Source: Spirochaetia bacterium (GTDB lineage: Bacteria > Spirochaetota > Spirochaetia > SZUA-6 > Bin103). From it: a stretch of 64,000 bases of DNA. The position numbers and the translations under genes were made by a program. The notes beneath the pieces are model-generated. The model was not told where the DNA came from and did no database searches. It saw only the letters and a list, made by a program, of their open reading frames with translations. Shown here piece by piece: positions 16,506 to 60,573 of this stretch. The DNA is taken from positions 461,984 through 525,983 of the forward strand of contig CBDBOV010000006.1 of assembly GCA_965208575.1 (NCBI GenBank), given 5' to 3'. Within the stretch, counting starts at the first letter, position 1. Every line of letters starts with the position of its first letter.

Positions 16506-17402
16506 TCAAACCGACGTGGCGCCGCTGCCAGCGAGACGACCGCCGCCGCCTCGCAGCCGCGGGTCGAGCAGGTCCCGCATGGCATCACCCAGCATGTTGA
16601 AACTGTACACCACGATCGTCAGGCACACCCCGGGCCATAGCGCCAGCCAGGGGGCCTGCTCCATGTACCTGCTCCCTTCATTGCTGAGCATCCCTCCCCA
16701 ACTGGGGACATCGATGGGCAACCCGAATCCGAGGAAGCTCAACGCCGCCTCGGCCAGGATGACGCCGCCGACGTTGATGCTGAAGACGATGATGAGGGGC
16801 GCCACGATATTGGGCAGGACATGGCGCACCAGAATCTGCGTGGTGGGCGCGCCCACGGCCTTGGCTGCCAGGAAGTAGTCGTTGCCCTTGGTGGCCACCA
16901 CGGCGCCTCTGACGACGCGCGAGCCGCCCACGCCGCCGGTGATCCCCAGGACCACGATGATCTGTGGCAGACCCTGCCCCACGACCGACATGATCGTGAG
17001 CAATAGCAGCAGTCCCGGGAACGCCATCCAGGCATCGACCAATCGTTGCACCGCCAGGTCCAGCTTACCGCCGAGGAATCCGGACGTGCCGCCGATCAGG
17101 GTAGCGACCACCACGTTCAGCGTGGTCGCCGCCAGACCAACGACCAACGAGATGCGCGCCCCGAACAGCAGACGGCTCAACAGGTCTCGCCCCAACTGGT
17201 CGGTCCCCAGCAGATGTCGCGTCGATGAGCCCTGCAGCCTTTCTGCCAGGCTCAGTTGATCGAAGGGATAAGGGGCCAAAACATCGGCAAAGATTGCCAG
17301 CAGAATCAGGATCAAGATGACGATTCCGCTGGCGATGCCCAGCGGCTTCTCCCGCCACAACCTGCCAAAGAAATCGGCAAACAGGCGCCGCGTGTCATTC
17401 AT
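16506..17402 (-). CDS. ABC transporter permease, DppC/OppC-like (cassette 1)
   Basis: ORF 16506..17429, with ATG 17402 preferred over TTG 17429. HLLGTDQLGRDLLSRLLFGARISL and a conserved EAA-loop region. Confidence 0.85.
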   Translation of the reverse strand: MNDTRRLFADFFGRLWREKPLGIASGIVILILILLAIFADVLAPYPFDQLSLAERLQGSSTRHLLGTDQLGRDLLSRLLFGARISLVVGLAATTLNVVVATLIGGTSGFLGGKLDLAVQRLVDAWMAFPGLLLLLTIMSVVGQGLPQIIVVLGITGGVGGSRVVRGAVVATKGNDYFLAAKAVGAPTTQILVRHVLPNIVAPLIIVFSINVGGVILAEAALSFLGFGLPIDVPSWGGMLSNEGSRYMEQAPWLALWPGVCLTIVVYSFNMLGDAMRDLLDPRLRGGGGRLAGSGATSV

Positions 17403-17435
17403 AGGTAGCGCACTCCGGGGTGCAGCCAAAGAGCC

Positions 17436-18434
17436 TCACTCATAGCGCACTCTCGGGTCCAGATAGGAATAGAGCAGGTCGACCAGGAGATTGAACAGCA
17501 CCACCGCGGTGGCGAAGAACAGGTTGACCCCGGACACCACCGGGTAGTCTCTGTCTTCCAGTGCAGTCAGCATGAGACGACCCAATCCCGGCAGGTTGAA
17601 GATGTTCTCCATGATGACGGAGCCACCTATCAGGATCGGCAACTGCAGACCGATCAGGGACACCACCGGGATGAGTGCGTTCTTGACGGCGTGCCGCATG
17701 ACGACCACCCGCTCTCTGAGACCCTTCGCCCAGGCGGTCCGGACGTAGTCCTGCCGCAGCACCTCCAGCATCATGGTGCGTGTCATCCGCATGGTGCTGG
17801 CAGACAGCGCCGTCGCCAGAATCAGGCTGGGAATGACCAGGATCCCCAGGTGGGCCCACGGGTCTCCGGTGAAAGGAACCCACTCGATCGGTGGCGTCCA
17901 GCGCCACCAGAGGGACGGGTAGAGCACGACCATGATTGCGAGCCAGAAGTTGGGCGTTGCCAGGCCGAGGATGGCGGCGGAGCGCCCCACGTAGTCGGCG
18001 GCCGTATCCTGGCGAATCGCCGAGTAGATGCCGACCGGCAGCGCGATCACCAGCCCGATGAGGATTGCCATGACACCCAGCTCAATGGTTACCGGCAGTC
18101 TAGCCAATATCTGTTCCTCTACCGGCAAAGCGCCCAACAGTGACTCACCAAGGGCGCCCTGCAGGATACCTCTAAAGTGGGACTCACCGGTACTAGCGTC
18201 GGGGATCGGCAACACGCCTAGCCAGCGTCCATACTGCACATGCACCGGCACGTCCAATCCCAGCATACGCTCAAGAGCTGCACGGTCTATCCTGTTAGAC
18301 ACGAACTCCTGCTTGCCCATCATTGCGTCTATTATATCGCCCGGGATGAAGCGGACTGAGAGAAAGACCATGATCGTCAATAGAAACAGGGTGGGGATTA
18401 TGAGCAGTAGCCTTCTGATGATATAGGCTCTCAT
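17436..18434 (-). CDS. ABC transporter permease, DppB/OppB-like (cassette 1)
   Basis: ORF 17436..18443, second ATG 18434. MRAYIIRRLLLIIPTLFLLTIMVF...MLEVLRQDYVRTAWAKGL. Confidence 0.85.
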   Translation of the reverse strand: MRAYIIRRLLLIIPTLFLLTIMVFLSVRFIPGDIIDAMMGKQEFVSNRIDRAALERMLGLDVPVHVQYGRWLGVLPIPDASTGESHFRGILQGALGESLLGALPVEEQILARLPVTIELGVMAILIGLVIALPVGIYSAIRQDTAADYVGRSAAILGLATPNFWLAIMVVLYPSLWWRWTPPIEWVPFTGDPWAHLGILVIPSLILATALSASTMRMTRTMMLEVLRQDYVRTAWAKGLRERVVVMRHAVKNALIPVVSLIGLQLPILIGGSVIMENIFNLPGLGRLMLTALEDRDYPVVSGVNLFFATAVVLFNLLVDLLYSYLDPRVRYE

Positions 18435-18634
18435 CCGATACACCCCATTGCCAGTTACCCCGTCGCCGCGAGCCGCGATTTATCGGGACATGGGGCGCGC
18501 GGCGCGAGGCGTGGGGTGTGACAAATCGAGGCCGCTCCTCGCAATGGGATGGTTATGGGAGCCGGGAGGCTGTCGCCTGCAGGCGCGCCTCCCAACTCCC
18601 GATTTCACAAAGTCAGTCACAAGGGGTCAACCCC

Positions 18635-20431
18635 TTAGTTACCCATTGCCTCCTTCAGCTCGTGGTCAAGCCAGAAGCGGGCGTACTGGACATAGAACTC
18701 CCCGCCCCCAAAGGCGCCTGAGTCCATTTCGCCGTTATAGCCTATGAGCCACGGCTGAGCAAAATAGAATTGTGGACCTCTAGGACCCCATATGCGGTAG
18801 TGCTTCTCTACCGCGTACATATCTGCTTCTGCAATCAGCCTCTTCTGCTCCTCGATGGTCTTAGCGGCCAGGGCGGCGTCGACCATGGCATCGAGCTCAT
18901 GAAACTGGTGTCCGCTCTTGTTAAGGGTCGGATGATCCGTGCGCAACCAGTCTACCATATCCTTGGGGTCGAACCTGGCGCCCGCAATGGCGGCGGTGAT
19001 GCCTTCAAACTCACCCGAGGCTATCCTCTCGTTAAATGCGCTCCAAGCCAGATTATCAACCTCGACCTCGACGCCAATCTCAGCCCAGTAGGCGGCAGCT
19101 ATTTGTGCATGGTCCAAACTTGCCCCAAAAGGCCCGTAATTCAGGATGGTCTTGAATCTAATACCGTCTGCGTCGCGCGGATATCCCGCCTCATCAAGGA
19201 GCTTCTCGGCAGCTTCCGGGTCATACCGGTACCATTGCTTGACCTCGGCGGGCCACTCATCAAATGGGATGTAATACCCCTTATTCCCTATCAACCCGAA
19301 CGGTGTCGGATCGGCTCGACCCGACCAGAGCGTAGCCGCCGAAGTCTCGTTGTCGAGTGCCAACTGCATTGCGTGGCGCACGTTGATGTCGTCAAAGGGC
19401 GGCTTACGAATGTCAAGTTCAAAAGAATCATTCGACCTGAAGTAGAAAAAGTACGTCTTGATTTCCGGGTTGGTCCGCTGTAGGCTCAGTACCGCGTCCA
19501 AGTCAGTTTCCTGCCGCTGGTAATCAAGCTTGCCGGCGCGTAGTGCTGCAAAAATTGATGCTAACTCTGGAATGACCAAAACCTTTAACTCGTCAACGTA
19601 GGGCAAGCGGTTTTTTGGGAATTTTTCGTCATGGCCCCAGTAGTCAGGGTTCTTGACCCAGGTGATAGAGGTGCCCGCGACCCGGTCAACCATCATAAAG
19701 GGCCCCGTGCCGACCAGGTTCCTCCAGTCCTTGACGTCGCCGTGTTGCTCGATTACCTCGGGGGGCAATATGAAAAAAGCGGGATCGACGAGCATACTCG
19801 TCAGCGCAGGGAGCCACGGCTCCTTCAGCTTTATCACGACCGTCGCATCGTCGGTGGCCGTTATCGATTCCCATGGGACGTTTTTGGCTGGGAAAGGCAT
19901 TTCGGTCGGTCCGGCCTCGCTGAACTCGCCCAGACCCAACACCCGGTTGTAGTTGTATGCGACATCAGCGGCAGTTAGCTCCCGACCGTTCATCGGTGCC
20001 TTATTATGCCAGTGAACGCCCGGGCGGATGTGGAAGGTATAGGTGCGCCCGTCCGCGGAAATATCCCAGCTTTCCGCCAGCCTCCCGATTATGAATTCTT
20101 CAGGGAGGAATTGGCTTTTGAAGTCAAATACGTCCCTATCTATCCCCCAGTCCCCGATGCCGAGCTTCTCCACAACGCCTGAGATGACGTTGTTCCCCCA
20201 GTTGAAATAGGTGTCAGTAGACCATTCAGTACCAGACGTCCAGGGCTGGCTGGTGGTGATTGTCCCGCCGTACCGCGGTGCCAACACCACCTCGCCGGTG
20301 GTGGGGTCGGTCACATACCGCTTCTCGGCGGCGGCTCCCGGCTCCTCCTCCGCGCCAGTGGCCCAGAGGCCGGATGCGGTCAAAACCAGGACCAGCGCAA
20401 CCGAGAAGGTCTTTGCAATGAACATCTTCAT
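18635..20431 (-). CDS. ABC transporter substrate-binding protein, family 5 (DppA/OppA/NikA-like), cassette 1
   Basis: Internal ATG 20431 of ORF 18635..20569. Signal peptide MKMFIAKTFSVALVLVLTASGLWA, then a family-5 pattern (HWHNKAPMNGRELTAADVAYNYNR). Confidence 0.85.
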   Translation of the reverse strand: MKMFIAKTFSVALVLVLTASGLWATGAEEEPGAAAEKRYVTDPTTGEVVLAPRYGGTITTSQPWTSGTEWSTDTYFNWGNNVISGVVEKLGIGDWGIDRDVFDFKSQFLPEEFIIGRLAESWDISADGRTYTFHIRPGVHWHNKAPMNGRELTAADVAYNYNRVLGLGEFSEAGPTEMPFPAKNVPWESITATDDATVVIKLKEPWLPALTSMLVDPAFFILPPEVIEQHGDVKDWRNLVGTGPFMMVDRVAGTSITWVKNPDYWGHDEKFPKNRLPYVDELKVLVIPELASIFAALRAGKLDYQRQETDLDAVLSLQRTNPEIKTYFFYFRSNDSFELDIRKPPFDDINVRHAMQLALDNETSAATLWSGRADPTPFGLIGNKGYYIPFDEWPAEVKQWYRYDPEAAEKLLDEAGYPRDADGIRFKTILNYGPFGASLDHAQIAAAYWAEIGVEVEVDNLAWSAFNERIASGEFEGITAAIAGARFDPKDMVDWLRTDHPTLNKSGHQFHELDAMVDAALAAKTIEEQKRLIAEADMYAVEKHYRIWGPRGPQFYFAQPWLIGYNGEMDSGAFGGGEFYVQYARFWLDHELKEAMGN

Positions 20432-21099: not shown

Positions 21100-22083
21100 C
21101 TACGGGCTATCCTTGCGTTCCAGCTTCTGCAGGGCACGGGTGGCGCGCTCGGCGGCGCGGGCGCCTACGCCGCCGGCCACCCCGCGGCCGCCGCGCAGGC
21201 GCGGGTCGAGCAGGTCGCGCAGCGCGTCGCCCACCATGTTCAGGCAGTACACCACCAGCGTCAGCGCCACCCCCGGCCACATCGCCAGCCGCGGCGCCAT
21301 CTCCATGTACTGGCGCCCCTCACGGCTCAGCATCGTGCCCCAGCTCGGCACGTCCGGCGGCAGCCCGAAGCCCAGAAAGCTCAAGGACGCCTCCGCGATG
21401 ATCGCCCAGCCGATGGTGATCGAGTAGATGATGATGATCGGCGCCGTGATGTTGGGCCACACGTGGCGCAGCAGCGTCCGCCACGACGGGCTGCCGATCG
21501 CATGCGCCGCCTCGAAGTAGGCGTTGCCCTTGATCCCGATCACCGCACCCCGCACCACCCGCGAGTTGGCCACCCCGGACGCCAGCGCCAGCATGCCGAT
21601 GATCTGCGGGATGCCCTGGCCGACGATGGTCATGATGGTCAGCAGCAGCAGCAGGCCCGGAAACGACATCCAGGCGTCCACCAGCCGCTGCACCGCCAGG
21701 TCGACCTTGCCGCCCACGAACCCCGCCACCCCGCCGATCAGCAGCGACACCACCACGCTCAGGGTGGTGGCGGCGAACCCCACCCCCAGCGACACCCGCG
21801 CCCCGTACAACAGGCGGCTGAACAGGTCGCGGCCGATGTGGTCGGTGCCCAGCGGGTAGGTGCCGGACGGCCCCTTGAGCCGGTCGATCATGGTCATTTC
21901 CATGAAGTGATACGGCGCCAGCAGGTCGGCGAAGATCGCCACCAGGCACAGCAGCAGCACGACCGCACCGCTGACCGCGCCCACCGGCCGCTCCCTGATC
22001 AGCCGGCGCAGCAGGTCGCGCAGGAACGACTGCCCCTTCACTCCTTTGGCCGGTAGCGCTTGCGGCACGGTCACCTCACCCAT
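21100..22083 (-). CDS. ABC transporter permease, DppC/OppC-like (cassette 2)
   Basis: 327-aa ORF. YPLGTDHIGRDLFSRLLYGARVSL. Ends ...RALQKLERKDSP. Confidence 0.85.
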   Translation of the reverse strand: MGEVTVPQALPAKGVKGQSFLRDLLRRLIRERPVGAVSGAVVLLLCLVAIFADLLAPYHFMEMTMIDRLKGPSGTYPLGTDHIGRDLFSRLLYGARVSLGVGFAATTLSVVVSLLIGGVAGFVGGKVDLAVQRLVDAWMSFPGLLLLLTIMTIVGQGIPQIIGMLALASGVANSRVVRGAVIGIKGNAYFEAAHAIGSPSWRTLLRHVWPNITAPIIIIYSITIGWAIIAEASLSFLGFGLPPDVPSWGTMLSREGRQYMEMAPRLAMWPGVALTLVVYCLNMVGDALRDLLDPRLRGGRGVAGGVGARAAERATRALQKLERKDSP

Positions 22084-22095
22084 AGCGACACCCCG

Positions 22096-23061
22096 TCAGC
22101 CGTATTGGACGCGCGGGTCCAGGTAGGCGTACAGCACGTCGACCAGCAGGTTGATGACCATCACCGCGACGGCGAAGAACAGGTTGATCCCCGATATCAA
22201 CGGGTAGTCGCGATCGGACAGGGCATTGATCATCAGGCGTCCCAGGCCGGGGATGGCGAACATCTGCTCCATGATGACCGAGCCGCCGACGATGATCGGT
22301 ATCTGCAGCCCTGCCAGCGTCACCACCGGAATGAGCGCGTTCTTGATGACGTGACGGAGGATGACCAGGCGCTCGCGCAGGCCCTTGGCCCAGGCGGTGC
22401 GAATGTAGTCCTGGCGGAGCACCTCGAGCATCATGGTACGGGTCATGCGCATGGTGCTGGCCGCCAGGTAGGTGCCGAGGATCAGACCCGGCACGATGAA
22501 GATGCCAAAGTGGCCGACGAAGTCGTCGGTCAGGCGCACCAGGCGCAGCGGCGGCGACCACGCCCACCAGATCGCCGGGAAGATGAGGATGATGGTGGCC
22601 AGCCAGAAGTTGGGCGTCGCCAGACCGAAGATGGCGAAGGAGCGACCGACGTAGTCGCCCACCGTATCCTGCCGCACCGCCGAGTAGATGCCGATCGGCA
22701 CCCCGATCAGCATCCCTACGACCAGTGCCACCACGCCCAGCTCGATGGTGGTCGGCAGCCGCCCGGCGATCAGTTGACCGACCGGTTCCGCCTTCAACAG
22801 AGGCTTGCCCAGATCGCCGCGCAAGATTATGCCGCCCATCCAGCGGCCATACTGCACCGGCACCGGCACGTCGAGCCCCAGCCGCCGCTCAAGCTCCGCC
22901 CGGTCGATGTGGTCCCCGCCGCCGGCCCCAGCCTCCATCCGGTACAGAAGCGTGTCTATGGCATCCCCTGGTATGAACCGCACCGACAGGAACACCAGAA
23001 TCGTCAGCAGGAAGAAGGTGGGGATCAGCAGCAGGACGCGGCGGATGACGTACGCCCTCAT
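22096..23061 (-). CDS. ABC transporter permease, DppB/OppB-like (cassette 2)
   Basis: 321-aa ORF. MRAYVIRRVLLLIPTFFLLTILVF...MLEVLRQDYIRTAWAKGL. Confidence 0.85.
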   Translation of the reverse strand: MRAYVIRRVLLLIPTFFLLTILVFLSVRFIPGDAIDTLLYRMEAGAGGGDHIDRAELERRLGLDVPVPVQYGRWMGGIILRGDLGKPLLKAEPVGQLIAGRLPTTIELGVVALVVGMLIGVPIGIYSAVRQDTVGDYVGRSFAIFGLATPNFWLATIILIFPAIWWAWSPPLRLVRLTDDFVGHFGIFIVPGLILGTYLAASTMRMTRTMMLEVLRQDYIRTAWAKGLRERLVILRHVIKNALIPVVTLAGLQIPIIVGGSVIMEQMFAIPGLGRLMINALSDRDYPLISGINLFFAVAVMVINLLVDVLYAYLDPRVQYG

Positions 23062-23223
23062 GTCGACGGAAGAACTGTCATTTCTTGCTGTTACTCCCCC
23101 TGGCGCAAATGAACTGGAGGGCGCGCGCCGGGAAGGCGCCCGACCCCCAGCTCGCGTCTACGGGTCAATTTCATTCAGGGAGCCGGCCCAAAGGCGGCCC
23201 TTGCTGGCTACGGCATTTCGCTC

Positions 23224-25029
23224 TCAGGATCCCATCTCGCGCTTCAGATCCTGATCGATCCAGAGGCGGGCGAAGATCGGCATTTTCTGAATATGGCCGA
23301 GATCACCTTCCCCGTTGTAGCCCTTGAGCCATGGCTGGCCGACATTGAACAGGGGAGCTCTCGGCCCCCGTATCACCCATATCCCCTCGGCGATGCGCAG
23401 GTCGGCCTTGCGCGCCCACTCCTGCTGCTCCTCCAGCGTGGTGGCGGTCAGCATGTTCTGGAAGTACTCGTCAAACTCAGCGTCGATGACGTTCTGGTCC
23501 CGCCACCCGCTTGTCGACGACGCATCGGAGATGTCAGAGATCACACCGGGATACTCGGCGCCATGCACATCCGTCCTCAACCCGAGATAGGGACAGTCAA
23601 ACGGGTTCGAACTGCACTCGATGCCCTTCTGCTGGTGTGTCGCGCGGGTAACCTCCTGGATCTCGACGTCGATGCCGATCTTCCTGAGGTAATCCATGGC
23701 GATCTGATAGTAGCCGAGGTCGAAGAACTCGTAGTGTTCGTAGACGGTCTTGAAACGCACGCCGTCCGCGCCGCGCGGAAGGCCGGCCTCGTCCAGCAGC
23801 TTCTCGGCCGCCTCGGGGTCGAACCGATACCACTGCGCGATCTCCTCGGGCCACTCTTCGAACGGCACCGCATACCCGAGCACAGCCCTGCCAAAACCGC
23901 CGACGGGCGTCGTATCGGACCACCCCTGATGGTAGGATTCCGAGATGGCGTCGAAGTCTATGGCCATGTTGAGGGCACGGCGCACGCGGATGTCGTTCCA
24001 AGGTGCGCTCTGGTTGTCAAACGTGAACGCCGTCTCCGCACGAAACGAAAACGTGGAAAACTGCAACTCGGGATTGGTCTCCTGCAGACTCAGGGCCTGG
24101 TCGACGCTGGAGAGGTGCGAGTTCGTTCCCCACCCCATCCAATCCGCCTGCCCAGAGCGCATCAGGGACAGCCTGGTAGCCGGGTCAGAGACGATCAGGA
24201 GCTCGATCTGATCGGCGTAGGGCAAACGGTTGTCGGGGAACTTCTCGTCGAAGCCCCAGTAGTCATCGATCCTGGTGTAGGTCCACGAACTTCCCTCCAC
24301 CACGTCAGTAAGCTGGTAGGGCCCCGTTCCGGTCACGTTGCGCCAGTCTTGAATGTCCCCGAACTGCTCGACGACCTCGCGGGCGACGATGTAGGCATGA
24401 TGAGAAACGGATAGTGTCTTCAAGGCCTCGAGAAAGGGCGCTTTCAACTTGACCACGACCGTGGAATCGTCGGGAGCGGTGATCGAATCCCAGTCCATCT
24501 TAGGCAGCTGTCCGATCCCTAAATCCTGCCCCGGCTCGCCGCCGTCAAAGCCCAGGAGCCGGTTGTAGCTGTATGCGACATCGTGGGCGGTCAGCTGCCG
24601 GCCGTTCACCGGCGCCTTGTCGTGCCAGAACACGTCGTCACGAATCTTGAACACGTAGGTGAGCGGATCCGGGTTCTCCCAGCTCTCAGCCAGCTGTCCG
24701 ATGAGGACCTCGACGGGCAGGTAGAGCGTGTTATAACCGAACACACTCCGGTCGAATGACCAGTCGCCAATGCCCAGCTTCTCGTTGACCAGCCCGATCC
24801 AGCCCCCCGCGGAGTAAACGAAGTAGGGGTCGATGCCCTCCGGCTTGCCGGCGACAAGCAATCTGATCGTGCCGCCATATTCGGGCGCGGTCACCATCTC
24901 GCCGGTGGCCGGGTCGAGCACCATCTCCTTCTCGGCCGCGGCCGCCGGCTGGTCGCTCTCGCCGCTGGCGAACGTAACGGTAGCCACCAGCGCGAACACC
25001 AGCGGCAGCAATAGGAGTCTTGGAGTCAT
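23224..25029 (-). CDS. ABC transporter substrate-binding protein, family 5 (cassette 2)
   Basis: Internal ATG 25029 of ORF 23224..25128, behind GAGGAGGAG. MTPRLLLLPLVFALVATVTFASGE... Confidence 0.85.
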   Translation of the reverse strand: MTPRLLLLPLVFALVATVTFASGESDQPAAAAEKEMVLDPATGEMVTAPEYGGTIRLLVAGKPEGIDPYFVYSAGGWIGLVNEKLGIGDWSFDRSVFGYNTLYLPVEVLIGQLAESWENPDPLTYVFKIRDDVFWHDKAPVNGRQLTAHDVAYSYNRLLGFDGGEPGQDLGIGQLPKMDWDSITAPDDSTVVVKLKAPFLEALKTLSVSHHAYIVAREVVEQFGDIQDWRNVTGTGPYQLTDVVEGSSWTYTRIDDYWGFDEKFPDNRLPYADQIELLIVSDPATRLSLMRSGQADWMGWGTNSHLSSVDQALSLQETNPELQFSTFSFRAETAFTFDNQSAPWNDIRVRRALNMAIDFDAISESYHQGWSDTTPVGGFGRAVLGYAVPFEEWPEEIAQWYRFDPEAAEKLLDEAGLPRGADGVRFKTVYEHYEFFDLGYYQIAMDYLRKIGIDVEIQEVTRATHQQKGIECSSNPFDCPYLGLRTDVHGAEYPGVISDISDASSTSGWRDQNVIDAEFDEYFQNMLTATTLEEQQEWARKADLRIAEGIWVIRGPRAPLFNVGQPWLKGYNGEGDLGHIQKMPIFARLWIDQDLKREMGS

Positions 25030-25236
25030 AACGTAACTCCTCCTCGTTTTCGGGAGACGGGACCGGGTTCCGTCGCCCGTGGTCTTGGACCGGAGACTCC
25101 GGCCTTCTCGAATGGTCCTTGTATTCACGGCGCGGGGTATTGGAGCGGTAGGTGTGGATATGGACGGGAGCCGCTAGCAGCCCGTGGTGGAACCCGGCGT
25201 AGCACCGAGAGCGGCGAGGCGCCCGGCTGGCAAGGC

Positions 25237-27511: not shown

Positions 27512-27530
27512 GGACGGAGCAGGACGGAGC
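27512..27530. repeat. Leader 10-bp tandem repeat GGACGGAGCA, about 2 units (L2)
   Basis: Read directly: ggacggagca ggacggagc. Confidence 0.8.
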
Positions 27531-48249: not shown

Positions 48250-48254
48250 ACCCG

Positions 48255-52255: not shown

Positions 52256-52362
52256 GAGAGGCAGTGTACGCGTTTCCGATCAGGTCCGACAACAATCCGA
52301 ATTGCCTCACGTCTTGAGCGATCAAGCACCCGATCAGGCAACCGATCAAGTGACGCGTCAGC

Positions 52363-53340
52363 TCAGCGGGATCGTTCGAGCTTCTGCAGGGCCCGGGTGG
52401 CGCGCTCGGCGGCGCGGGCGCCTACCCCGCCGGCCACCCCGCCGCCGCCGCGCAGGCGCGGGTCCAGCAGGTCGCGCAGCGCGTCGCCCACCATGTTCAG
52501 GCAGTACACCACCAGGGTCAGCGCCACCCCAGGCCACATCGCCAGCCGCGGCGCCATCTCCATGTACTGCCGCCCCTCACGGCTCAGCATCGTGCCCCAG
52601 CTCGGCACGTCCGGCGGCAGCCCGAAGCCCAGGAAGCTCAGGCTCGCCTCCGCGATGATCGCCCACCCGATCGTGATCGAGTAGATGATGATGATCGGCG
52701 CCGTGATGTTCGGCCACACGTGGCGCAGCAGCGTCCGCCACGACGGGCTGCCGATGGCGTGCGCCGCCTCGAAGTAGGCGTTGCCCTTGATGCCGATCAC
52801 CGCCCCCCGCACCACCCGCGAGTTGGCCACCCCGGAGGCCAGCGCCAGCATGCCGATGATCTGCGGGATGCCCTGGCCGACGATGGTCATGATGGTCAGC
52901 AGCAGCAGCAGGCCGGGAAACGACATCCAGGCGTCCACCAGGCGCTGCACCGCCAGATCCACCTTGCCGCCCACAAACCCCGCCACCCCGCCGATCAGCA
53001 GCGACACCACCACGCTCAGGGTGGTGGCGGCGAACCCCACCCCCAGCGACACCCGCGCCCCGTACAGCAGGCGGCTGAACAGGTCGCGGCCGATGTGGTC
53101 GGTGCCCAGCGGGTAGGTGCCCGACGGCCCCTTGAGGCGGTCGATCATGGTCATTTCCATGAAGTGATACGGCGCCAGCAGGTCGGCGAAGATCGCCACC
53201 AGGCACAGCAGCAGCACGACCGCACCGCTGACCGCTCCCACCGGCCGCTCCCTGATCAGCCGGCGCAGCAGGTCGCGCAGGAACGACTGCCCCTTCGCCC
53301 CCCGCTCCGGCAGCGCCTTCGGCGCGGTCACCTCACCCAT
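52363..53340 (-). CDS. ABC transporter permease, DppC/OppC-like (cassette 6)
   Basis: 325-aa ORF, near-identical to permC2. Confidence 0.85.
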   Translation of the reverse strand: MGEVTAPKALPERGAKGQSFLRDLLRRLIRERPVGAVSGAVVLLLCLVAIFADLLAPYHFMEMTMIDRLKGPSGTYPLGTDHIGRDLFSRLLYGARVSLGVGFAATTLSVVVSLLIGGVAGFVGGKVDLAVQRLVDAWMSFPGLLLLLTIMTIVGQGIPQIIGMLALASGVANSRVVRGAVIGIKGNAYFEAAHAIGSPSWRTLLRHVWPNITAPIIIIYSITIGWAIIAEASLSFLGFGLPPDVPSWGTMLSREGRQYMEMAPRLAMWPGVALTLVVYCLNMVGDALRDLLDPRLRGGGGVAGGVGARAAERATRALQKLERSR

Positions 53341-53409
53341 GGTGTCGCCTCCGTCACCCCGCGATTTCGAGGACGACCGCTGGTCAGCATTTTCGGACCA
53401 CGCACCCCG

Positions 53410-54375
53410 TCACCCGTAGTGGACGCGCGGGTCCAGGTACGCGTACAGCACGTCGACGAGCAGGTTGATCACCATCACCGCGACGGCGAAGAACAGGTTG
53501 ATCCCCGAGATCAGCGGGTAGTCACGATCGAACAGGGCGTCGATCATCAGCCGCCCCAAGCCGGGGATGGCGAACATCTGCTCCATGATCACCGAGCCGC
53601 CGACGATGATCGGTACCTGCAGTCCTACCAGCGTCACCACCGGGATCAGCGCGTTCTTGATCACGTGGCGCAGGATCACCAGCCGCTCCCGCAGCCCCTT
53701 GGCCCAGGCGGTGCGAATGTAGTCCTGGCGCAGCACCTCCAGCATCATGGTGCGGGTCATGCGCATGGTGCTGGCCGCCAGGTAGGTGCCCAGGATCAGG
53801 CCCGGCACGATGAACATGCTCAAGTGGCGCACCGGGTCGTCGCTCAGCCGCATCAGGCGCAACGGCGGCGACCACCCCCACCAGATCGCCGGAAACACCA
53901 GGATGATGGTGGCCAGCCAGAAGTTGGGCGTGGCCAGTCCGAAGATGGCGAAGGAGCGCCCCACGTAGTCGCCGACGGTGTCCTGCCGCACCGCCGAGTA
54001 GATGCCGATCGGCACCCCGATCAGCACCCCCACGATCACCGCCACCAAGCCCAATTCGATGGTGGTCGGCAGCCGGCCGCCGATCAGCTCGCCGACCGGT
54101 TCCGGCCGCAGCAGCGGGGTGCCCAGGTCGCCGCGCAGCAGAATCGCCCCCATCCAGCGCGCGTACTGCACGTGCACCGGCACGTCCAGCCCCAGCCGCC
54201 GCTCCAGCGCCGCCCGGTCGATGGCGGTGCCGCCGCCGGCCGCCTCCGCCATTCTGAACATCAGGAGGTCGACGGCGTCCCCCGGTATGAACCGCACCGA
54301 CAGGAACACCAGAATCGTCAGCAGGAAGAAGGTCGGGATCAGCAGCAGGACGCGGCGGATGACGTACGCTCTCAT
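53410..54375 (-). CDS. ABC transporter permease, DppB/OppB-like (cassette 6)
   Basis: 321-aa ORF. MRAYVIRRVLLLIPTFFLLTILVF. Confidence 0.85.
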   Translation of the reverse strand: MRAYVIRRVLLLIPTFFLLTILVFLSVRFIPGDAVDLLMFRMAEAAGGGTAIDRAALERRLGLDVPVHVQYARWMGAILLRGDLGTPLLRPEPVGELIGGRLPTTIELGLVAVIVGVLIGVPIGIYSAVRQDTVGDYVGRSFAIFGLATPNFWLATIILVFPAIWWGWSPPLRLMRLSDDPVRHLSMFIVPGLILGTYLAASTMRMTRTMMLEVLRQDYIRTAWAKGLRERLVILRHVIKNALIPVVTLVGLQVPIIVGGSVIMEQMFAIPGLGRLMIDALFDRDYPLISGINLFFAVAVMVINLLVDVLYAYLDPRVHYG

Positions 54376-54422
54376 GTCGGTGCAGACGCGGTCGCGTCTC
54401 GGCGGTCAAGCGCGAGAACCCC

Positions 54423-54450
54423 GCCCTCGAGCGGGGTCCTCGCTACCTCG
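54423..54450 (-). terminator. 11-bp-stem hairpin between SBP6 and permB6
   Basis: GAGAACCCCGC-cctcga-GCGGGGTCCTC (one A/C mismatch in the stem). Homologous to 41422..41449. Confidence 0.4.
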
Positions 54451-54464
54451 CAGCCCGCGGATCG

Positions 54465-56252
54465 CTAAGAGCCCAGCTCCCGCTTCAGATCCTGGTCCAC
54501 CCACAGGTACATGAGAACGGTGGACCGTTGCATCCCGCCGACATCGCCTTCCCCGTTGTAGCCCTTGATCCACGGCTGGGTGGCGCCGAACAGGGGAGCA
54601 ACCGGCCCCCTGATCATCCACAGCTGCTCGGCGATGCGCAGGTTGGCCTGCCGCGCCCACTCCTGCTGCTCCTCTACCGTGGTAGCGGCCAGCGCTTTCT
54701 CGTAGATTTCGTCGAATACCGGGTCGTTGTTGTTGTTGGGGTTCCAGCCGGCTTTCGACCAGTAAGAGTTTATCGGGGCAAGGCCACTGGGATACTCGGC
54801 AGCCCATACGTCGGTGCGCAAGCCTGGATATCCGTGGCTCATGCCCCACTCGCTATTCTGCGCGCGAGTTATTTCCTCGATCTCGACGTCGATGCCGATC
54901 TGCCGGAGGTAATCCATGGCGATCTGGTAATAGCCGAGGTCGAAGAACTCGTAGTGCGAATAGATGGTGCTGAACCGGATGCCGTCTTCACCGCGCGGAT
55001 AGCCGGCATCGTCGAGCAGCCTCTCGGCTTCCTCGGGGTCGTACCGATAGTATTGCTGGGTCTCCTCGGGCCACTCCTCGAACGGGACGGCATACCCGAG
55101 CACCCTGGCGCCGGTGGCCCCTTGCGGGCTTGCATCGCCCCAACCCTGCTGGTAATTCTCGGCGATGGACTCGTGGTCGATGGCCAGGCTGAGGGCCTGG
55201 CGCACGCGGATGTCGCTCCAGGGCTCCTTCTGGAGGTTGAAACCGAACGCGGTCTCCGACCGGTAGGAATACGGGTGCAGCACCAGGTCGGGTTTGGTCT
55301 TCTGCAGATTGACCGCCGAGTCGACACTGGTGAGATGGGAGTTGAGTCCGAACCCAATCCAGTCCGCCTGTCCGGAGCGCATCAGTGAGGTGATGGCTGT
55401 CATGTCGTTGACGACCAGGAACTCGATGGTGTCCGCGTAGGGCAAACGATTGTCCGGGAATTTCGGGTCGAAACCCCAATAATCGTCGATCTTGGTGTAG
55501 GTCCAGGAGCTGCCCTCCACCACGTCGGTCAGTTGAAAGGGGCCCGTTCCGGTCACGTTGCGCCAGTCCTGAATGTCTCCGAACTCATCGACCACCTCGC
55601 GGGCGACGATGTAGCCATGCTCTGCCACGAGCATGCGGCTGAACGCGGTGACACTGGGCTCCTGCAGCTTGAATACCACCGTCGAATCGTCGGTAGCGGC
55701 AACCGATTCCCACTTTATGTTGCAGATATCGAAGCCCCCCGGGCAGTCCGGGCTCGGCTCGCCGCCGTCCACCCCGAACAGGAGCCGCTGCCAACTGTAG
55801 GCGACATCGTGCGCGGTGAGCTGCCGGCCGTTCACCGGCGCCTTGTCGTGCCAGAACACGCCGTCGCGGATCTTGAACACGGCGGTGAGCGGATCCGGCC
55901 TCTCCCAGCTCTCGGCCAGTTGTCCGACGAGGGCCTCGTCGGGCAGGAACAGCGTAGTGTAGCCGACCTTGCTCCGGTCGATCGCCCAGTCGCCCACGCC
56001 GAGCTTCTCGTTGACCAGCCCGATGAAGGCTCCCGCGGAGTAGCGGAAATAGGGGTCGATCCCCTCCGGCTTGAAGTTGATGACCGCCCTGATCGTGCCG
56101 CCATACTCGGGCGCGGTGACCATCTCGCCGGTGCTCGGGTCGAGCACCATCTCCTTCTCGGCCGCGGCCGCCTCCTCGCCTTCTCCGGCGGCAAACGTAA
56201 CGGTAGCCACTAGCGCGAACACCAGCGGCAGAAATAGGAATCTTGGAGTCAT
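54465..56252 (-). CDS. ABC transporter substrate-binding protein, family 5 (cassette 6)
   Basis: 595-aa ORF. MTPRFLFLPLVFALVATVTFAAGEGEEAAAAEKEMVLDPSTGEMV. Confidence 0.85.
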   Translation of the reverse strand: MTPRFLFLPLVFALVATVTFAAGEGEEAAAAEKEMVLDPSTGEMVTAPEYGGTIRAVINFKPEGIDPYFRYSAGAFIGLVNEKLGVGDWAIDRSKVGYTTLFLPDEALVGQLAESWERPDPLTAVFKIRDGVFWHDKAPVNGRQLTAHDVAYSWQRLLFGVDGGEPSPDCPGGFDICNIKWESVAATDDSTVVFKLQEPSVTAFSRMLVAEHGYIVAREVVDEFGDIQDWRNVTGTGPFQLTDVVEGSSWTYTKIDDYWGFDPKFPDNRLPYADTIEFLVVNDMTAITSLMRSGQADWIGFGLNSHLTSVDSAVNLQKTKPDLVLHPYSYRSETAFGFNLQKEPWSDIRVRQALSLAIDHESIAENYQQGWGDASPQGATGARVLGYAVPFEEWPEETQQYYRYDPEEAERLLDDAGYPRGEDGIRFSTIYSHYEFFDLGYYQIAMDYLRQIGIDVEIEEITRAQNSEWGMSHGYPGLRTDVWAAEYPSGLAPINSYWSKAGWNPNNNNDPVFDEIYEKALAATTVEEQQEWARQANLRIAEQLWMIRGPVAPLFGATQPWIKGYNGEGDVGGMQRSTVLMYLWVDQDLKRELGS

Positions 56253-56613
56253 GATGTACTCCTCCTCTTATTCGGGAGCGGGACTGCGTCCCGGTACCCG
56301 TGGTCTTGGGCCGGCAACTCCGGCCTTTTCGAATGGTCGTAGTATTCGCGGCGCGGGATAGTGGATCGATGGGTATGAATACGGACGGGAGCCGCTACTA
56401 GCCCGTCAGCGGCGCGGTGGTGCGGTGAGCGGAGAGAGCGGTCAGTTACCGGTTGCTTGGCGTGTTGCGGAGCAGGACGGAGCAGGACGGAGCAGGACGG
56501 AGCGCTAACGCTTGCAGCGAACGGGCGGCCGCGGCGGGCTGTGTGATCGCGCTTCATCCGCGCTTGTCCTCCTCCCGGAGCCATCACCGTACCACACCGC
56601 CGGTATCCGTCAA
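56253..56613 (-). promoter_or_regulatory. Conserved SBP leader, copy L6
   Basis: -35 TTGACG 56608..56613, 16 nt, -10 TACGGT 56586..56591, GGAGGAGG, ATG 56557 (MKRDHTARR). The upstream ORF ends at TGA 56251..56249, overlapping SBP6 ATG 56252..56250. Confidence 0.5.
56466..56503. repeat. Leader 10-bp repeat, about 3.5 units (L6)
   Basis: gcggagcaggacggagcaggacggagcaggacggagcg. Confidence 0.9.
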
Positions 56614-56774: not shown

Positions 56775-56949
56775 CTACTCGCTGAGCAGATCGACGAAGC
56801 GCCGGTTGATGTAGTAGTTCTCGCGGCCCCGCCGGATGCGCTCCAAGGACCCGAGTTGAGTCATTTTTTCAAGGTAGCGTCGGGCCGTGAGGCGGCCGCA
56901 TCCGAGTTCCCGCTCCACTATGCCAATCTTGCAGTACGGCCACTTGGCG
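56775..56949 (-). pseudogene. C-terminal winged-helix fragment of a Fic-family protein, fused in frame to the permease remnant
   Basis: KIGIVERELGCGRLTARRYLEKMTQLGSLERIRRGRENYYINRRFVDLL, the typical Fic C-terminal wHTH pattern. No Fic core is present. Confidence 0.5.
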
Positions 56950-57560
56950 GCGCGGGCGCCTACCCCGCCGGCCAGCGAGCCGCCGCCGCGCAGGCGCGGG
57001 TCGAGCAGGTCGCGCAGCGCGTCGCCGACCATGTTCAGGCAGTACACCACAGGGTCGGCGCCACCCCCGGCCACATCGCCAGCCGCGGCGCCATCTCCAT
57101 GTACCGCCGCCCCTCGCGGCTCAGCATCGTGCCCCGACTCGGCACGTCCCAAGCGCTGCACCGCCAGGTCCACCTTGCCGCCCACGAACCCCGCCACCCC
57201 GCCGATCAGCAGCGACACCACCACGCTCAGGGTGGTGGCGGCGAACCCCACCCCCAGCGACACCCGCGCCCCGTACAGCAGGCGGCTGAACAGGTCGCGG
57301 CCGATGTGGTCGGTGCCCAGCGGGTAGGTGCCCGACGGCCCCTTGAGGCGGTCGATCATGGTCATGTCCATGAAGTGATACGGCGCCAGCAGGTCGGCGA
57401 AGATCGCCACCAGGCACAGCAGCAGCACGACCGCGCCGCTGACCGCTCCCACCGGCCGCTCCCTGATCAGCCGGCGCAGCAGGTCGCGCAGAAACGACTG
57501 CCCCTTCGCCCGCTTCGCTCCCGGCGCCGGTAGCGCCTGTGGCGCGGTCACCTCACCCAT
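56950..57560 (-). pseudogene. DppC-like permease (cassette 7) with a ~130-codon internal deletion, frameshift and lost 3' end
   Basis: ORF 56775..57560 is permease-like up to ...GGKVDLAVQRL. It then reads out of frame and returns to VVYCLNMVGDALRDLLDPRLRGGG. The deletion junction is near 57150. Confidence 0.8.
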
Positions 57561-57572
57561 GGCGGCACCCCG

Positions 57573-58538
57573 TCAGCCGTACTGGACGCGCGGGTCCAGG
57601 TAGGCGTAGAGGATGTCGACTAGCAGGTTGATGACCATGACCGCGCCGGCAAAGAACAGATTGATGCCCGATATCAACGGGTAGTCGCGATCGAACAGGG
57701 CGTCGATCATCAGCCGTCCCAGGCCCGGTATGGCGAACATCTGCTCCATGATGACCGAGCCGCCGACGATGATCGGTATCTGCAGTCCCACCAGCGTCAC
57801 CACCGGGATGAGGGCGTTCTTGATAACGTGGCGGAGGATGACCAGGCGCTCGCGCAGGCCCTTTGCCCACGCCGTGCGAATGTAGTCCTGTCTGAGCACC
57901 TCCAGCATCATGGTGCGGGTCATGCGCATGGTGCTGGCCGCCAGGTAGGTACCAAGGATCAGACCCGGCACGATGAACATGGCGAGGTGGCGCATGGGGT
58001 CGTCGGCCAGGCGCACCAGGCGTAGCGGCGGCGACCATCCCCACCAGATCGCGGGGAAAACGAGGATGATGGTGGCCAGCCAGAAGTTGGGCGTGGCCAG
58101 CCCGAATATGGCGAAGGAGCGACCCACGTAGTCGCCCACGGTGTTCTGCCGTACTGCCGAGTAGATGCCGATCGGCACCCCGATCAGCACGCCTACGATC
58201 AGCGCCACCAGGCCCAGCTCGACGGTCGTCGGCAGCCGGCCGGCGATCAGCTCGCCGACCGGCTCCGGCCGCAACAGCGGCTTGCCGAGATCGCCGCGCA
58301 GCAGTATCCCTCCCATCCAGCGGCCATACTGCACGTGCGCCGGCACGTCCAGCCCCAGCCGGCGCTCCAGCTCCGCGCGGTCGATGTCGATGCCGCCGCC
58401 CATCGTCGCCTCCATCCTCCACACGAGGACGTCGACCGCATCGCCCGGTATGAATCGCACCGAGAGGAACACCAGAATCGTCAGCAGGAAGAAGGTGGGG
58501 ATCAGCAGCAGTACGCGACGGATGACGTACGCTCTCAT
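57573..58538 (-). CDS. ABC transporter permease, DppB/OppB-like (cassette 7)
   Basis: 321-aa ORF. MRAYVIRRVLLLIPTFFLLTILVF. Confidence 0.85.
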   Translation of the reverse strand: MRAYVIRRVLLLIPTFFLLTILVFLSVRFIPGDAVDVLVWRMEATMGGGIDIDRAELERRLGLDVPAHVQYGRWMGGILLRGDLGKPLLRPEPVGELIAGRLPTTVELGLVALIVGVLIGVPIGIYSAVRQNTVGDYVGRSFAIFGLATPNFWLATIILVFPAIWWGWSPPLRLVRLADDPMRHLAMFIVPGLILGTYLAASTMRMTRTMMLEVLRQDYIRTAWAKGLRERLVILRHVIKNALIPVVTLVGLQIPIIVGGSVIMEQMFAIPGLGRLMIDALFDRDYPLISGINLFFAGAVMVINLLVDILYAYLDPRVQYG

Positions 58539-58791
58539 GTCGACTCAGATGCCATGTCTCGAGGTTGCTCTCCGGCAGCCCGTGGCGAAACTCCGCCTGC
58601 ATTCAAGCGGCGAATGCATCCCGGCTGCCTCGCCGCTCTCGGTGCGACGCCGGGTCCCACCACCGGCTGCTAGTCAGAATGAGAGAGTTGGAAGGCGCGC
58701 GCATGGAACGCGCACAACCCCCAGCTCTTGCTCACTCGGTTACCGGGCGCCCGGCGCGAGGCCTGGCGCGCCGGGCGCCGGAGGCGTTGCC

Positions 58792-60573
58792 TCAGAATCC
58801 GAGCTCCCGCTTCAGGTCTTGGTCAACCCACAGATAGGCAAAGGCGTTAGGCCGGTTCATCGAACCGAGATCGCCTTCCCCGTTGTAGCCCTTGATCCAT
58901 GGCTGGGTGGCGCCGAACAAGGGAGCAACTGGCCCCCTGATGGTCCACAGCTGCTCGGCGGCGCGCAGGTCGGCCTTCTGCGCCCACGCCTTCTGCTCCT
59001 CTATCGTGGTAGCGACCTGCGCGTTTTCGTAGTACTCGTCGAACTCGGGGTCGAGGTGGTTCGAACGAACCACCTTTTGCTTTGAGTAGTATTGCCCAAG
59101 CGGGGCCAAAGGAGAGTCATACTCTCTGGCCCATGTGTCTGACATCAACCCCTCATAGCTGTGCTTTGGGATCAGTGCGCCGCGTTCTGCGCGCGTGTGG
59201 ACCTCGATCTCGACCTCGATGCCGATCTGCCTGAGGTAGTCCATGGCGATCTGGTAATAGCCGAGGTCGAAGAACTCGTAGTGACCGTACCGGGTCCTGA
59301 AGCGAACGCCGTCCGCGCCGCGCGGATAGCCAGCCTCATCCAGCAGCTTCTCGGCCGCCTCGGGATCATAGCGATAGTACCTCTTGACCTCATCGGGCCA
59401 CTCTTCGAACGGGAGCGCATACCCCAGCACGGCTGGGCCGATCGGGCCGGAAGGGCTGGCATCACCCCACCCCTGCATGTAGTTCTCGGCGATGGCGTCG
59501 AAGTCTATGGCCATCGCGATGGCCCGGCGTACCCGAATATCATCGAAGGGCGGTTGCTGAACGTTCCAGAACATCGCCGTTTCCGACCGATAGGCAAACG
59601 GGTGCAACATCAGGTCGGGATTGGTCTTCTGCAGATTCACCGCCGAGTCGACACTGGTCAGATGTGAGTTGAGAGCGAACCCTATATAATCCGCCTGCCC
59701 CGAGCGCATCAGTGCGGTGATGGCCGCCGGGTCGTTGACGATCGCGTACTCGACGGTGTCCGCGTAGGGCAAACGGTTGTCGGGATATTTCGGGTCGAAG
59801 CCCCAGTAGTCATCGACCTTCTCGAAGGTCCACGAGCTTCCCTCCACCACGTCGGTAAGTTGATAGGGCCCCGTTCCGGTCACGTTGCGCCAGTCTTGGA
59901 TGTCCCCGAATTGCTCGACCACCTCGCGGGCGATCACCAACATGTGTGCTCCGATGAGGGTGTTCTTCAGGGCTTGGAGCGAGGGCTCGTTCAGTTCGAC
60001 TACCAGCGTAGAATCGTCGGTAGCGGTAACCGAATCGACCGGAATCTTGCCTCCCCACGACCGTACGACATCCAGGCCCGGCTCGTCGCCGCTCAAGCCA
60101 AGGAGCCGGTCGAAACTGTAGGCGACATCGTGCGCGGTCAGTTGCCTTCCGTTCACCGGCGCCTTGTCGTGCCAGAACACGCCGTCGCGGATCTTGAACA
60201 CGTAGGTGAGCGGATCCGGGCTCTCCCAGCTCTCTGCCAGTTGTCCGGTGATCACCTCTTCGGGCATGTAGAGCGTGTCATAGGCGAACACGCTTCTGTC
60301 GATCGCCCAGTCGCCGATGCCCAGGTTCTCGTTGACCAGCCCGACCCAGATCCCGGCGGTGTAGACAAAATAGGGATCGATCCCCTCGACCTTGAAGTTC
60401 ACCACCGGTCTGATCGTGCCGCCATACTCTGGCGCGGTGACCATCTCGCCGGTGCTCGGGTCGAGCACCATCTCCTTCTCGGCCGCGGATGCTTCCTCGC
60501 CCTCGGCGGCGGCAAACGTAACGGTAGCCACCAGCGCGAACGCCAGCGGCAGCAATAGGAGTCTTGGAGTCAT
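58792..60573 (-). CDS. ABC transporter substrate-binding protein, family 5 (cassette 7)
   Basis: Internal ATG 60573 of ORF 58792..60696, behind GAGGAGGAG. MTPRLLLLPLAFALVATVTFAAAEGEEASAAEKEMVLDPSTGEMV. Confidence 0.85.
   Translation of the reverse strand: MTPRLLLLPLAFALVATVTFAAAEGEEASAAEKEMVLDPSTGEMVTAPEYGGTIRPVVNFKVEGIDPYFVYTAGIWVGLVNENLGIGDWAIDRSVFAYDTLYMPEEVITGQLAESWESPDPLTYVFKIRDGVFWHDKAPVNGRQLTAHDVAYSFDRLLGLSGDEPGLDVVRSWGGKIPVDSVTATDDSTLVVELNEPSLQALKNTLIGAHMLVIAREVVEQFGDIQDWRNVTGTGPYQLTDVVEGSSWTFEKVDDYWGFDPKYPDNRLPYADTVEYAIVNDPAAITALMRSGQADYIGFALNSHLTSVDSAVNLQKTNPDLMLHPFAYRSETAMFWNVQQPPFDDIRVRRAIAMAIDFDAIAENYMQGWGDASPSGPIGPAVLGYALPFEEWPDEVKRYYRYDPEAAEKLLDEAGYPRGADGVRFRTRYGHYEFFDLGYYQIAMDYLRQIGIEVEIEVHTRAERGALIPKHSYEGLMSDTWAREYDSPLAPLGQYYSKQKVVRSNHLDPEFDEYYENAQVATTIEEQKAWAQKADLRAAEQLWTIRGPVAPLFGATQPWIKGYNGEGDLGSMNRPNAFAYLWVDQDLKRELGF

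Follow-up and report, generated by a model that had tools for sequence, protein, structure and literature searches.

Substrate-binding protein and permease cassettes without linked ATP-binding cassette ATPase genes in a Spirochaetia genome

Importers of the ATP-binding cassette (ABC) superfamily are usually annotated and modelled as self-contained operons. We analysed a 64-kb stretch of DNA (hereafter the window, whose own coordinates are used below) from contig CBDBOV010000006.1 of a Spirochaetia bacterium (assembly GCA_965208575.1, positions 461,984 to 525,983). The window has a GC content of ~65% and carries on its minus strand seven genes coding for substrate-binding proteins (SBPs), several of them followed by genes for two permeases, here termed B and C, and none of them by a gene for the nucleotide-binding domain (NBD) that would hydrolyse ATP. 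The question raised by this locus is whether such cassettes work as importers and, if so, which ATPase drives them. An original prediction, made from the sequence alone, left the choice between two readings: either every cassette borrows NBDs encoded elsewhere, or the array is a reservoir of binding-protein and permease specificities, several of which are already decaying.

Seven cassettes and no ATPase gene

Pfam scans of ~50 open reading frames (ORFs) of the window assigned an SBP_bac_5 domain (PF00496) to all seven predicted SBPs (E-values of 1e-63 to 1e-73), whose genes lie co-oriented at the predicted positions, and identified permeases wherever these had been placed. B permeases combine the BPD_transp_1 and BPD_transp_1_N domains, and C permeases the BPD_transp_1 and OppC_N domains. 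The methionine starts proposed for the SBPs were also right, a signal peptide following each of them. The SBPs are ~595 aa long; SBP2 to SBP7 begin with a near-identical signal peptide (MTPRLLLLPLVFALVATVTFA) that has no lipobox cysteine, while the signal peptide of SBP1 differs. According to sequence searches, the closest PDB entries to the SBPs are OppA, DppA and AccA, and the best NCBIfam matches of the permeases are Opp2B, GsiC and NikB for the B type and NikC and Opp4C for the C type, all below the equivalog cut-offs. No ligand could be assigned to the cassettes by the NCBIfam or PDB sequence searches.

Cassettes 1, 2, 5 and 6 are intact. Cassette 1 (16506-20431) consists of SBP1 (18635-20431), B1 (17436-18434) and C1 (16506-17429); cassette 2 (21100-25029) of SBP2 (23224-25029), B2 (22096-23061) and C2 (21100-22083); cassette 5 (47389-51157) of SBP5 (49379-51157), B5 (48255-49217) and C5 (47389-48249); and cassette 6 (52363-56252) of SBP6 (54465-56252), B6 (53410-54375) and C6 (52363-53340). 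Cassette 3 (36400-39072) is degraded: SBP3 (37288-39072) is intact, B3 is a pseudogene and there is no C3. B3 has suffered a 1-nt deletion near position 36845, which shifts the reading frame, and its homology to B6 stops near 36400 with ~67 codons gone. SBP4 (41475-43259) is an intact SBP gene without permease genes of its own. In cassette 7 (56775-60573), which is also degraded, SBP7 (58792-60573) and B7 (57573-58538) are intact and C7 (56775-57560) is a pseudogene, with a 326-nt out-of-frame deletion near 57149, a 1-nt deletion near 57050 and a tail that gives way to a SoFic-like_C fragment. The C7 lesion is also present in the related strain L003. The predicted inventory therefore stood as regards the seven SBPs and the B3 and C7 pseudogenes, and had overlooked a further minus-strand relic (44686-45084) that corresponds to the last ~130 codons of a C permease and duplicates the 3′ end of C2 and C6. 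We considered and rejected its designation as C4: since the relic lies upstream of SBP4 rather than downstream, it was assigned to a lost eighth cassette.

Among the ~50 ORFs of the window, the Pfam scans revealed no ABC_tran protein, the nearest approach being a sub-threshold P-loop touch in an AAA_22 protein (34732-35562). A motif search of six-frame ORFs across the 64 kb found none in which a Walker A motif is accompanied by an LSGGQ-like signature; the only good pair of Walker A and Walker B motifs belongs to the same AAA_22 transposition protein, as expected from the prediction that a transposon ATPase is the sole P-loop protein here. Searching the window by tblastn with the genuine OppD and OppF of a relative gave no match at E ≤ 1e-3, and ten NBD queries of different ABC classes, used against the window at E ≤ 10 without low-complexity masking, returned noise (26.6 bits at best). 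Motif search, tblastn and Pfam thus bear out the claim that the 64 kb contain no ABC NBD gene, nor any remnant of one, and the two linked OppD/OppF-type ATPase genes typical of the PepT family are missing from the window by all three. With every cassette on the minus strand and contained in the window, all 3′ flanks are in view, which excludes NBD genes situated just beyond the window in the same operons, a possibility that the original prediction had itself raised.

Relatives of B6 numbered more than 551 in species-representative genomes, and the best 80 were concentrated in ~10 metagenome-assembled genomes (MAGs). Once these loci had been mapped back to contig coordinates and overlaps removed, the sample amounted to 1.47 Mb from nine assemblies with a GC content of 48-65%, labelled Spirochaetia, Dehalococcoidia or unclassified; the differing GC contents and labels indicate that the nine assemblies come from different organisms. 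The sample contains 106 B, 99 SBP and 98 C genes of the cassette subfamily at full length, and at least 33 B genes were sampled from one assembly alone. OppD/F-type genes numbered two, forming a single pair, a count that does not set the rarity of D and F genes in whole genomes since the sampling was centred on cassettes. The missing ATPase genes are a property of the whole cassette subfamily and not the result of local decay, and the ATPase-less array is more general than could be seen from the window by the original prediction.

The exact B6 protein was found on four independent long-read metagenome contigs, one of them 6.13 Mb long. Each of the four has a similar NBD-less array, with toxin-antitoxin, AbiEii, Uma2, Fic and YhgA-like genes scattered through it. 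DNA of the window is found in sponge metagenomes. The nearest reference MAGs are labelled Spirochaetia, and the nearest named protein (92% identity) is attributed to a 'Spirochaetaceae bacterium'. A Spirochaetaceae bin from sponges (5.5 Mb, 67% GC) has been described previously, in a symbiont guild marked by various ABC transporters (Slaby et al. 2017, PMC5649159).

As for the NBD genes of the relatives, the only D/F pair of the sample (locus L044, also L085) is part of a complete SBP-D-F-B-C system that adjoins an NBD-less cassette. In an outgroup homologue from Reyranella, in which B is 58% identical, D and F belong to the same cluster (order B-C-A-A-D-F). The relatives encode OppD/F-type NBDs (ABC_tran plus oligo_HPY) at other loci, and the remaining NBD-like ORFs in the loci examined resembled the PstB, LivG/F and exporter types by sequence inspection.

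A relic of an NBD gene and a standalone NBD gene were also observed. At locus L030, a truncated OppF-type gene (16077-16952, minus strand; MAG OZ253572.1) lies ~5 kb from an NBD-less cassette. It has kept a degenerate signature, the Walker B motif, the H-loop and oligo_HPY, and the half with Walker A is gone, which directly documents the decay of NBD genes in this lineage. Locus L002 (1650-2789), on the 6.13-Mb contig, codes for a standalone MalK/MsiK-like NBD (ABC_tran plus TOBE_2 by Pfam, 379 aa) without adjacent permease genes, indicating that unlinked NBDs occur in the lineage.

Constraint, coupling helix and the source of the ATPase

Between the B6 orthologues of four strains, the rate of nonsynonymous substitution (dN) is 0 and the rate of synonymous substitution (dS) 0.06-0.12. 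The ratio of the two (omega) in the same four-strain comparison is 0.10-0.33 for SBP6 and 0.08-0.20 for C6. For SBP3 compared with its orthologue in strain L004, omega is 0.20; for SBP7 and B7 it is 0.30 and ~0.16, respectively; and for SBP4, which is 99.3% identical in strain L003, it is 0.15, a value derived from only 12 changes. The intact cassette genes are clearly under purifying selection, and both the intact cassettes and the SBPs without permeases of their own are constrained rather than decaying. Between paralogues, omega amounts to 0.36-0.46 for the SBPs, 0.13-0.20 for B and 0.14 for C, the SBPs being the fastest to evolve.

Contigs from sponge metatranscriptomes that are at least 95% identical to the window cover all seven SBP genes and, patchily, the permease genes, with near-zero coverage of the spacers and mobile elements. 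The depth of such contigs is highest over cassette 1, contig depth being a poor measure of expression.

In type I importers, a pair of BPD_transp_1 permeases cannot hydrolyse ATP by itself, and the NBD docks on the cytoplasmic EAA coupling helix. No part of the B permeases is more conserved than the coupling-helix region. In the NBD-less members it is nearly invariant (TMRMTRTMMLEVLRQDYIRTAWAKGLRER), although the whole proteins are only 62-66% identical, and it matches that of the Reyranella homologue with its linked D and F genes. Such near-invariance, together with the match to an NBD-linked homologue, indicates that the NBD-docking surface is being maintained.

Taken together, the coupling-helix, selection and transcript evidence lead us to prefer NBDs acting in trans, and the best explanation of the array, which we regard as probable, is that of functional importers run by shared NBDs encoded elsewhere. 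The first reading of the original prediction thereby gains from the absence of ATPase genes across the subfamily, from selection, from the metatranscriptomes and from the coupling helix, and is weakened by the lack of an identified trans NBD. On this view, the window represents a section of a large family of Opp/Dpp/Nik-type (PepT family) cassettes that evolves fast, and its source is an uncultured symbiont of sponges. Cassettes 1, 2, 5 and 6, each coding for a secreted family-5 SBP together with B and C, would be working importers, and their permeases would recruit OppD/OppF-type NBDs that are encoded elsewhere in the genome and common to many cassettes. Such ATPases would be the peptide-family counterpart of the 'multitask' proteins MsmX, MsiK and MsmK. 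For SBP3, SBP4 and SBP7, the most likely docking partners would be the permeases of sister cassettes, which are 88-98% identical, and the array would diversify by duplication, gene conversion and recombination, with the conserved permease genes and the common 5′ leader described below as the sites and the SBPs diverging fastest. The trans-acting ATPases, and their identity, are what we infer here, and the mechanism is well supported indirectly, not demonstrated.

Several points weigh against this explanation. Following the OppD/F-type homologues of relatives, we located no trans NBD for the genome of the window. In the complete SBP-D-F-B-C system, B carries a coupling helix (LIRVLRATLLDELGKDYVKVARAKGIPER) clearly unlike that of the NBD-less cassettes; close homologues of the OppD of this system (97-99%) occur in only three protein clusters, and no listed member of the three lies on a contig carrying the exact B6. 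With a different helix and with no listed OppD homologue on a B6 contig, this D/F pair is not an obvious partner. Metatranscriptome contigs that are 95-99% identical may stem from sister strains or close paralogues, metatranscriptome libraries can contain DNA, and dN/dS reflects past constraint, not present activity. Finally, NBD sharing within the peptide family is without an experimental precedent that we could find: the literature search yielded nothing on such sharing or on the expansion of these cassettes in sponge symbionts, a weak negative owing to its incomplete coverage.

Other ATPase candidates, namely two fused double-NBD proteins (P0009 and P0011), two OppD proteins (P0083 and P0055) and two OppF fragments (P0131 and P0125), were set aside because all of them belong to complete operons. 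Where their permeases were compared with B6 (loci L083, L084, L086, L087 and L089), these proved to be unrelated paralogues with other coupling helices, the L089 permeases being only ~30% identical to B6. A protein search with the OppF-type remnant of L030 (113-aa query) retrieved nothing longer than 198 aa, and one with the OppD of L044 (343 aa) nothing longer than 601 aa, a suspected cap at ~1.75 times the query length that makes the remnant search uninformative for full-length genes. Holobiont DNA matching the D-F region of L044 at 80% likeness consisted of NBD fragments of diverse organisms piled up without specificity, and is uninformative for the genome of the window.

The alternative that survives best, though we hold it to be unlikely, assigns the work to an ATPase of another class, such as a standalone MalK/MsiK-like NBD comparable to that of locus L002, acting as a general multitask ATPase. 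The L002 gene lies only 5 kb from a B6-carrying cassette, and it is to this class that the known multitask NBDs all belong (PMC7658222). In the DNA of the lineage that was sampled, which was centred on the cassettes, OppD/F-type genes also seem rare. The coupling helix matches that of the Reyranella homologue, the partners of which are of the OppD/F type, and we know of no case in which a MalK-type NBD serves permeases of the PepT family.

We give even less credence to the array having lost its function with its ATPase genes, so that what persists is decaying as a pseudogene graveyard or a silent reservoir. Damage to three of the seven cassettes, the C relic, the many A, B and C fragments in related loci, the OppF-type remnant without Walker A near a cassette of locus L030 and the density of mobile elements in the window would all fit such a history. 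They are outweighed by the purifying selection on intact genes, with dN = 0 for B6 in four strains, by the retention of more than 100 full-length, frame-intact copies across genomes of very different GC content, and by the matches of at least 95% to all seven SBP genes in sponge metatranscriptomes. The second reading of the original prediction, a decaying reservoir, is thus retained in part: the SBPs do evolve faster, three cassettes are damaged and cassettes have been gained or lost, but the intact cassettes and the orphan SBPs are constrained.

It is very improbable that the SBP-permease modules operate free of any ATPase, for example as binding-protein-dependent facilitators or sensors. The sole support for this idea is that linked NBD genes are missing throughout the subfamily, and it conflicts with the EAA coupling helix, on which NBDs dock, being the most conserved part of the B permeases; to our knowledge, there is no precedent for NBD-independent BPD_transp_1 importers. 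An assembly artefact, in which mis-assembly of this repeat-rich region full of mobile elements expanded fewer cassettes or mis-joins lost the NBD genes, is hardly credible, as the paralogues differ by 10-50% in nucleotide sequence, the exact B6 lies within similar NBD-less arrays in four independent long-read assemblies, cassettes 6-7 and SBP4 recur with 98-99% identity in independent long-read assemblies, an 11.6-kb stretch of the window has a collinear counterpart in strain L003 that is 98.3% identical, and the same architecture recurs in ~100 cassettes from nine assemblies.

Mosaicism, turnover and neighbouring elements

The SBPs comprise three lineages: SBP1, SBP5, and a group formed by SBP2, SBP3, SBP4, SBP6 and SBP7. 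Identity within this group is 65-81%, and SBP1 and SBP5 are each 41-47% identical to all other SBPs. The permeases are better conserved: B2, B6 and B7 share 88-92% identity, and C2 and C6 98%. The division of the cassettes into two sub-families that had been proposed from the C permeases (C1/C5 versus C2, C3, C4, C6 and C7) did not hold up, given that C3 and C4 do not exist, that the SBPs form three lineages, and that the identity between C1 and C5 (67%) does not exceed that of either to C2 and C6 (also 67%), so they are not a sub-family.

Judged by its patterns of identity, the array is a mosaic, with gene conversion. Between cassettes 2 and 6, the C permeases are 98% identical, the B permeases 88% and the SBPs only 67%. 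At the nucleotide level, identity is 63-85% along the SBP gene and climbs to 95-98% in C, with dS values of 0.56 for the SBP, 0.34 for B and 0.14 for C. Cassettes 5 and 7 are 81-95% identical in the 5′ leader and the first ~100 nt of coding sequence, and ~50-65% identical thereafter. Cassette 5 is a lineage of its own, yet conversion has given it a leader and a signal peptide of the group-II type; cassette 1, likewise a separate lineage, has its own signal peptide and lacks the shared leader.

Identity between SBPs falls at the same places across pairs, near codons 150-175, 325-335 and 450-480 and near the C-terminus. One of these troughs takes in the stretch aligned with W-C-A-D-Y of OppA, a motif whose Asp we take to bind and anchor the amino terminus of the peptide. 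The paralogues read WAAEY, WAREY, HGAEY, VGNTW and AGARF at this place, a hypervariability that would fit differing ligands and is only a lead.

Comparison with strain L003 revealed turnover of whole cassettes. The window is collinear with L003 and 98.3% identical from position 63982 down to the stop codon of C6 at 52363. Past C6, 8.9 kb of the window (43466-52362) stand against 1.4 kb in L003 (11957-13396); the extra DNA of the window carries cassette 5 and a YhgA-like gene, and cassette 5 is absent from this place in L003. C6 forms one edge of the indel; the other is a second copy of a C 3′ end (44702-45069), which shares 96.5% identity with the end of C6 in L003 and belongs to the relic of the eighth cassette. 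Beyond the indel, the two strains are again 99% identical across SBP4. Strains thus differ by the gain or loss of whole cassettes, and recombination within the conserved C genes is the apparent route.

A conserved 5′ leader of ~125 nt with two hairpins (25027-25152, minus strand) immediately precedes the ribosome-binding site of SBP2. The other five copies, on the same strand, precede SBP3 to SBP7 (39070-39196, 43257-43380, 51155-51279, 56250-56373 and 60571-60693). A covariance model recovered 25 copies in the window and its close relatives, every one directly 5′ of an SBP gene. In the leader, 90% of cells are paired compared to 26-57% in slid controls, and 5 of 23 pairs are compensatory, which is modest covariation. 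The leader matched no Rfam family. The leader could serve the cassettes as a common cis-regulatory RNA or operator, or else be simply a promoter region that recombination has homogenised.

Farther upstream than the leader, ~230 nt before the start codons of SBP5, SBP6 and SBP7, a 10-nt tandem repeat (CGGAGCAGGA on the plus strand) is present in 7.6, 3.6 and 2.6 copies, respectively (51418-51493, 56468-56503 and 60833-60858; minus-strand cassettes). Its copy number ranges from 2 to 14 among related cassettes, and that of cassette 7 is one unit apart between the window and the ~98% identical L003. The repeat may act as a contingency-type expression switch. A scan of cassette 6 for sigma-70 promoters and intrinsic terminators found no more of them than in shuffled sequence.

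YhgA-like genes (Transposase_31, PD-(D/E)XK; Pfam) are located at 15203-16231 (minus strand), at 31507-32358, where only a fragment is left, and at 45296-46348. The first, beside cassette 1, and the last adjoin cassette 3′ ends, as do those of the L001 and L003 cassettes. All three contain an in-frame 12-nt tandem repeat (GCTCGATGCCCT or GCTCGATACCCT), in 4.3, 11.3 and 6.3 copies, respectively. YhgA-like proteins may, we infer, drive the recombination of cassettes.

Cassettes 2 and 3 are separated by a block of mobile elements in mixed orientation (25313-35886; Pfam and Rfam). On its minus strand, a group II intron (reverse transcriptase, 25313-26653; ribozyme domains D1-D4, 26943-27159; Rfam RF02005, 152 bits) adjoins the leader of cassette 2 on the upstream side. 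It is followed by an rve transposase (27772-29046), a Transposase_29 gene (29189-30862) and, on the plus strand, a Tn7/Mu-like module (32526-35886) that codes for a TnsB-like protein (rve plus Mu-transpos_C, 33134-34735) and the AAA_22 protein mentioned above (34732-35562). The module abuts the truncated end of B3, and its flanking ORFs have no Pfam match.

The spacers of the window also contain genes of toxin-antitoxin and similar types, namely those for HicA (40845-41279), a SoFic-like_C fragment (56775-56950) and an AAA-ATPase_like plus PDDEXK_9 protein (61554-63407), and those of related strains (L001-L004) contain PIN/PhdYeFM, PemK, AbiEii, Uma2 and Fic genes. PADLOC recognised no known defence system in ten inter-cassette ORFs of the window. 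Outside the array, the plus strand carries large ORFs in a stretch of 78% GC (8965-12455) with repetitive Ig-like surface-protein domains (He_PIG, PKD and SWM_repeat), the product of which may be of the adhesin type. On the minus strand, 3973-6780 codes for a 935-aa protein with GAF, PAS, HisKA, HATPase_c, receiver and OmpR-type DNA-binding domains, a predicted architecture that amounts to a complete two-component pathway in a single polypeptide.

Comparison with known importers and shared ATPases

The cassettes resemble the Opp/Dpp/Nik systems (PepT, TC 3.A.1.5), such as OppABCDF and DppABCDF of E. coli and Salmonella, in their cluster C SBPs, their OppB/OppC-type permeases and the EAA helix, and their best PDB and NCBIfam matches overall are OppA, DppA, NikA, OppB/C and NikB/C. 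They differ from these systems in that the operons of the window lack D and F, that the SBPs (~595 aa) are longer than OppA or DppA, and that dozens of paralogous cassettes occur per genome.

The multitask systems of the CUT1 family combine SBP_bac_1-type SBPs and CUT1 permeases with a single MalK-like NBD that works as a homodimer. Like the array, the systems of MsmX (Bacillus subtilis), MsiK (Streptomyces) and MsmK (Streptococcus pneumoniae) comprise several operons with an SBP gene and two permease genes and no NBD gene; there, an NBD encoded at a distant locus serves several incomplete importers (PMC7658222). The cassettes described here do not belong to CUT1, as their SBPs are of the SBP_bac_5 type and their permeases of the Opp type. 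PepT-type permeases would be expected to need an OppD/OppF-type pair, and the scale is different: a single assembly yielded at least 33 B genes, where the three organisms named have six or seven systems. According to Leisico et al. 2020 (PMC7658222), multitask NBDs had until then been described for CUT1 importers alone. FhuC of Staphylococcus aureus, which is reported to serve several type II siderophore and haem importers as a single ATPase (PMC10147376), nonetheless points to NBD sharing outside CUT1, albeit with another type of importer, another NBD family and few partners.

SBP3, SBP4 and SBP7 bring to mind MppA of E. coli, which works with OppBCDF (PMC10622912): they are intact and under selection (omega of 0.15-0.30), lack an intact permease pair of their own and have close permeases within reach (B2, B6 and B7 at 88-92%, C2 and C6 at 98%). 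The translocator shared by MppA is a complete BCDF, whereas the candidate shared permeases here have no linked ATPases. By analogy, the orphan SBPs plausibly feed the permeases of sister cassettes.

A more far-reaching version of the preferred explanation, which we advance only tentatively, is that one or a few OppD/OppF-type pairs act as the 'multitask' engine for dozens of PepT permease pairs in sponge symbionts and that the cassettes, relieved of ATPase genes of their own, constitute a recombining library of specificities. The parts of such a library would be the structured 5′ leader, the 10-nt repeat, the conserved permease genes as substrates of recombination and the YhgA-like nucleases, and with its help the symbiont could keep pace as the compounds supplied by the host change.

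ATPase sharing has been shown mainly for CUT1 sugar systems, in which it affects regulation, stoichiometry and fitness. If shared NBDs do run these cassettes, the multitask principle would reach a second major importer family, with heterodimeric NBDs, and the array would provide a natural system for the recognition of many permeases by one NBD pair, with the coupling helix as a concrete handle. Metabolic reconstructions of sponge symbionts would change as well, since automated pipelines would score the cassettes as 'incomplete'. The expansion of the family, its presence in metatranscriptomes and the fast turnover of its SBPs point to the uptake of diverse host compounds as a central trait of the symbiosis.

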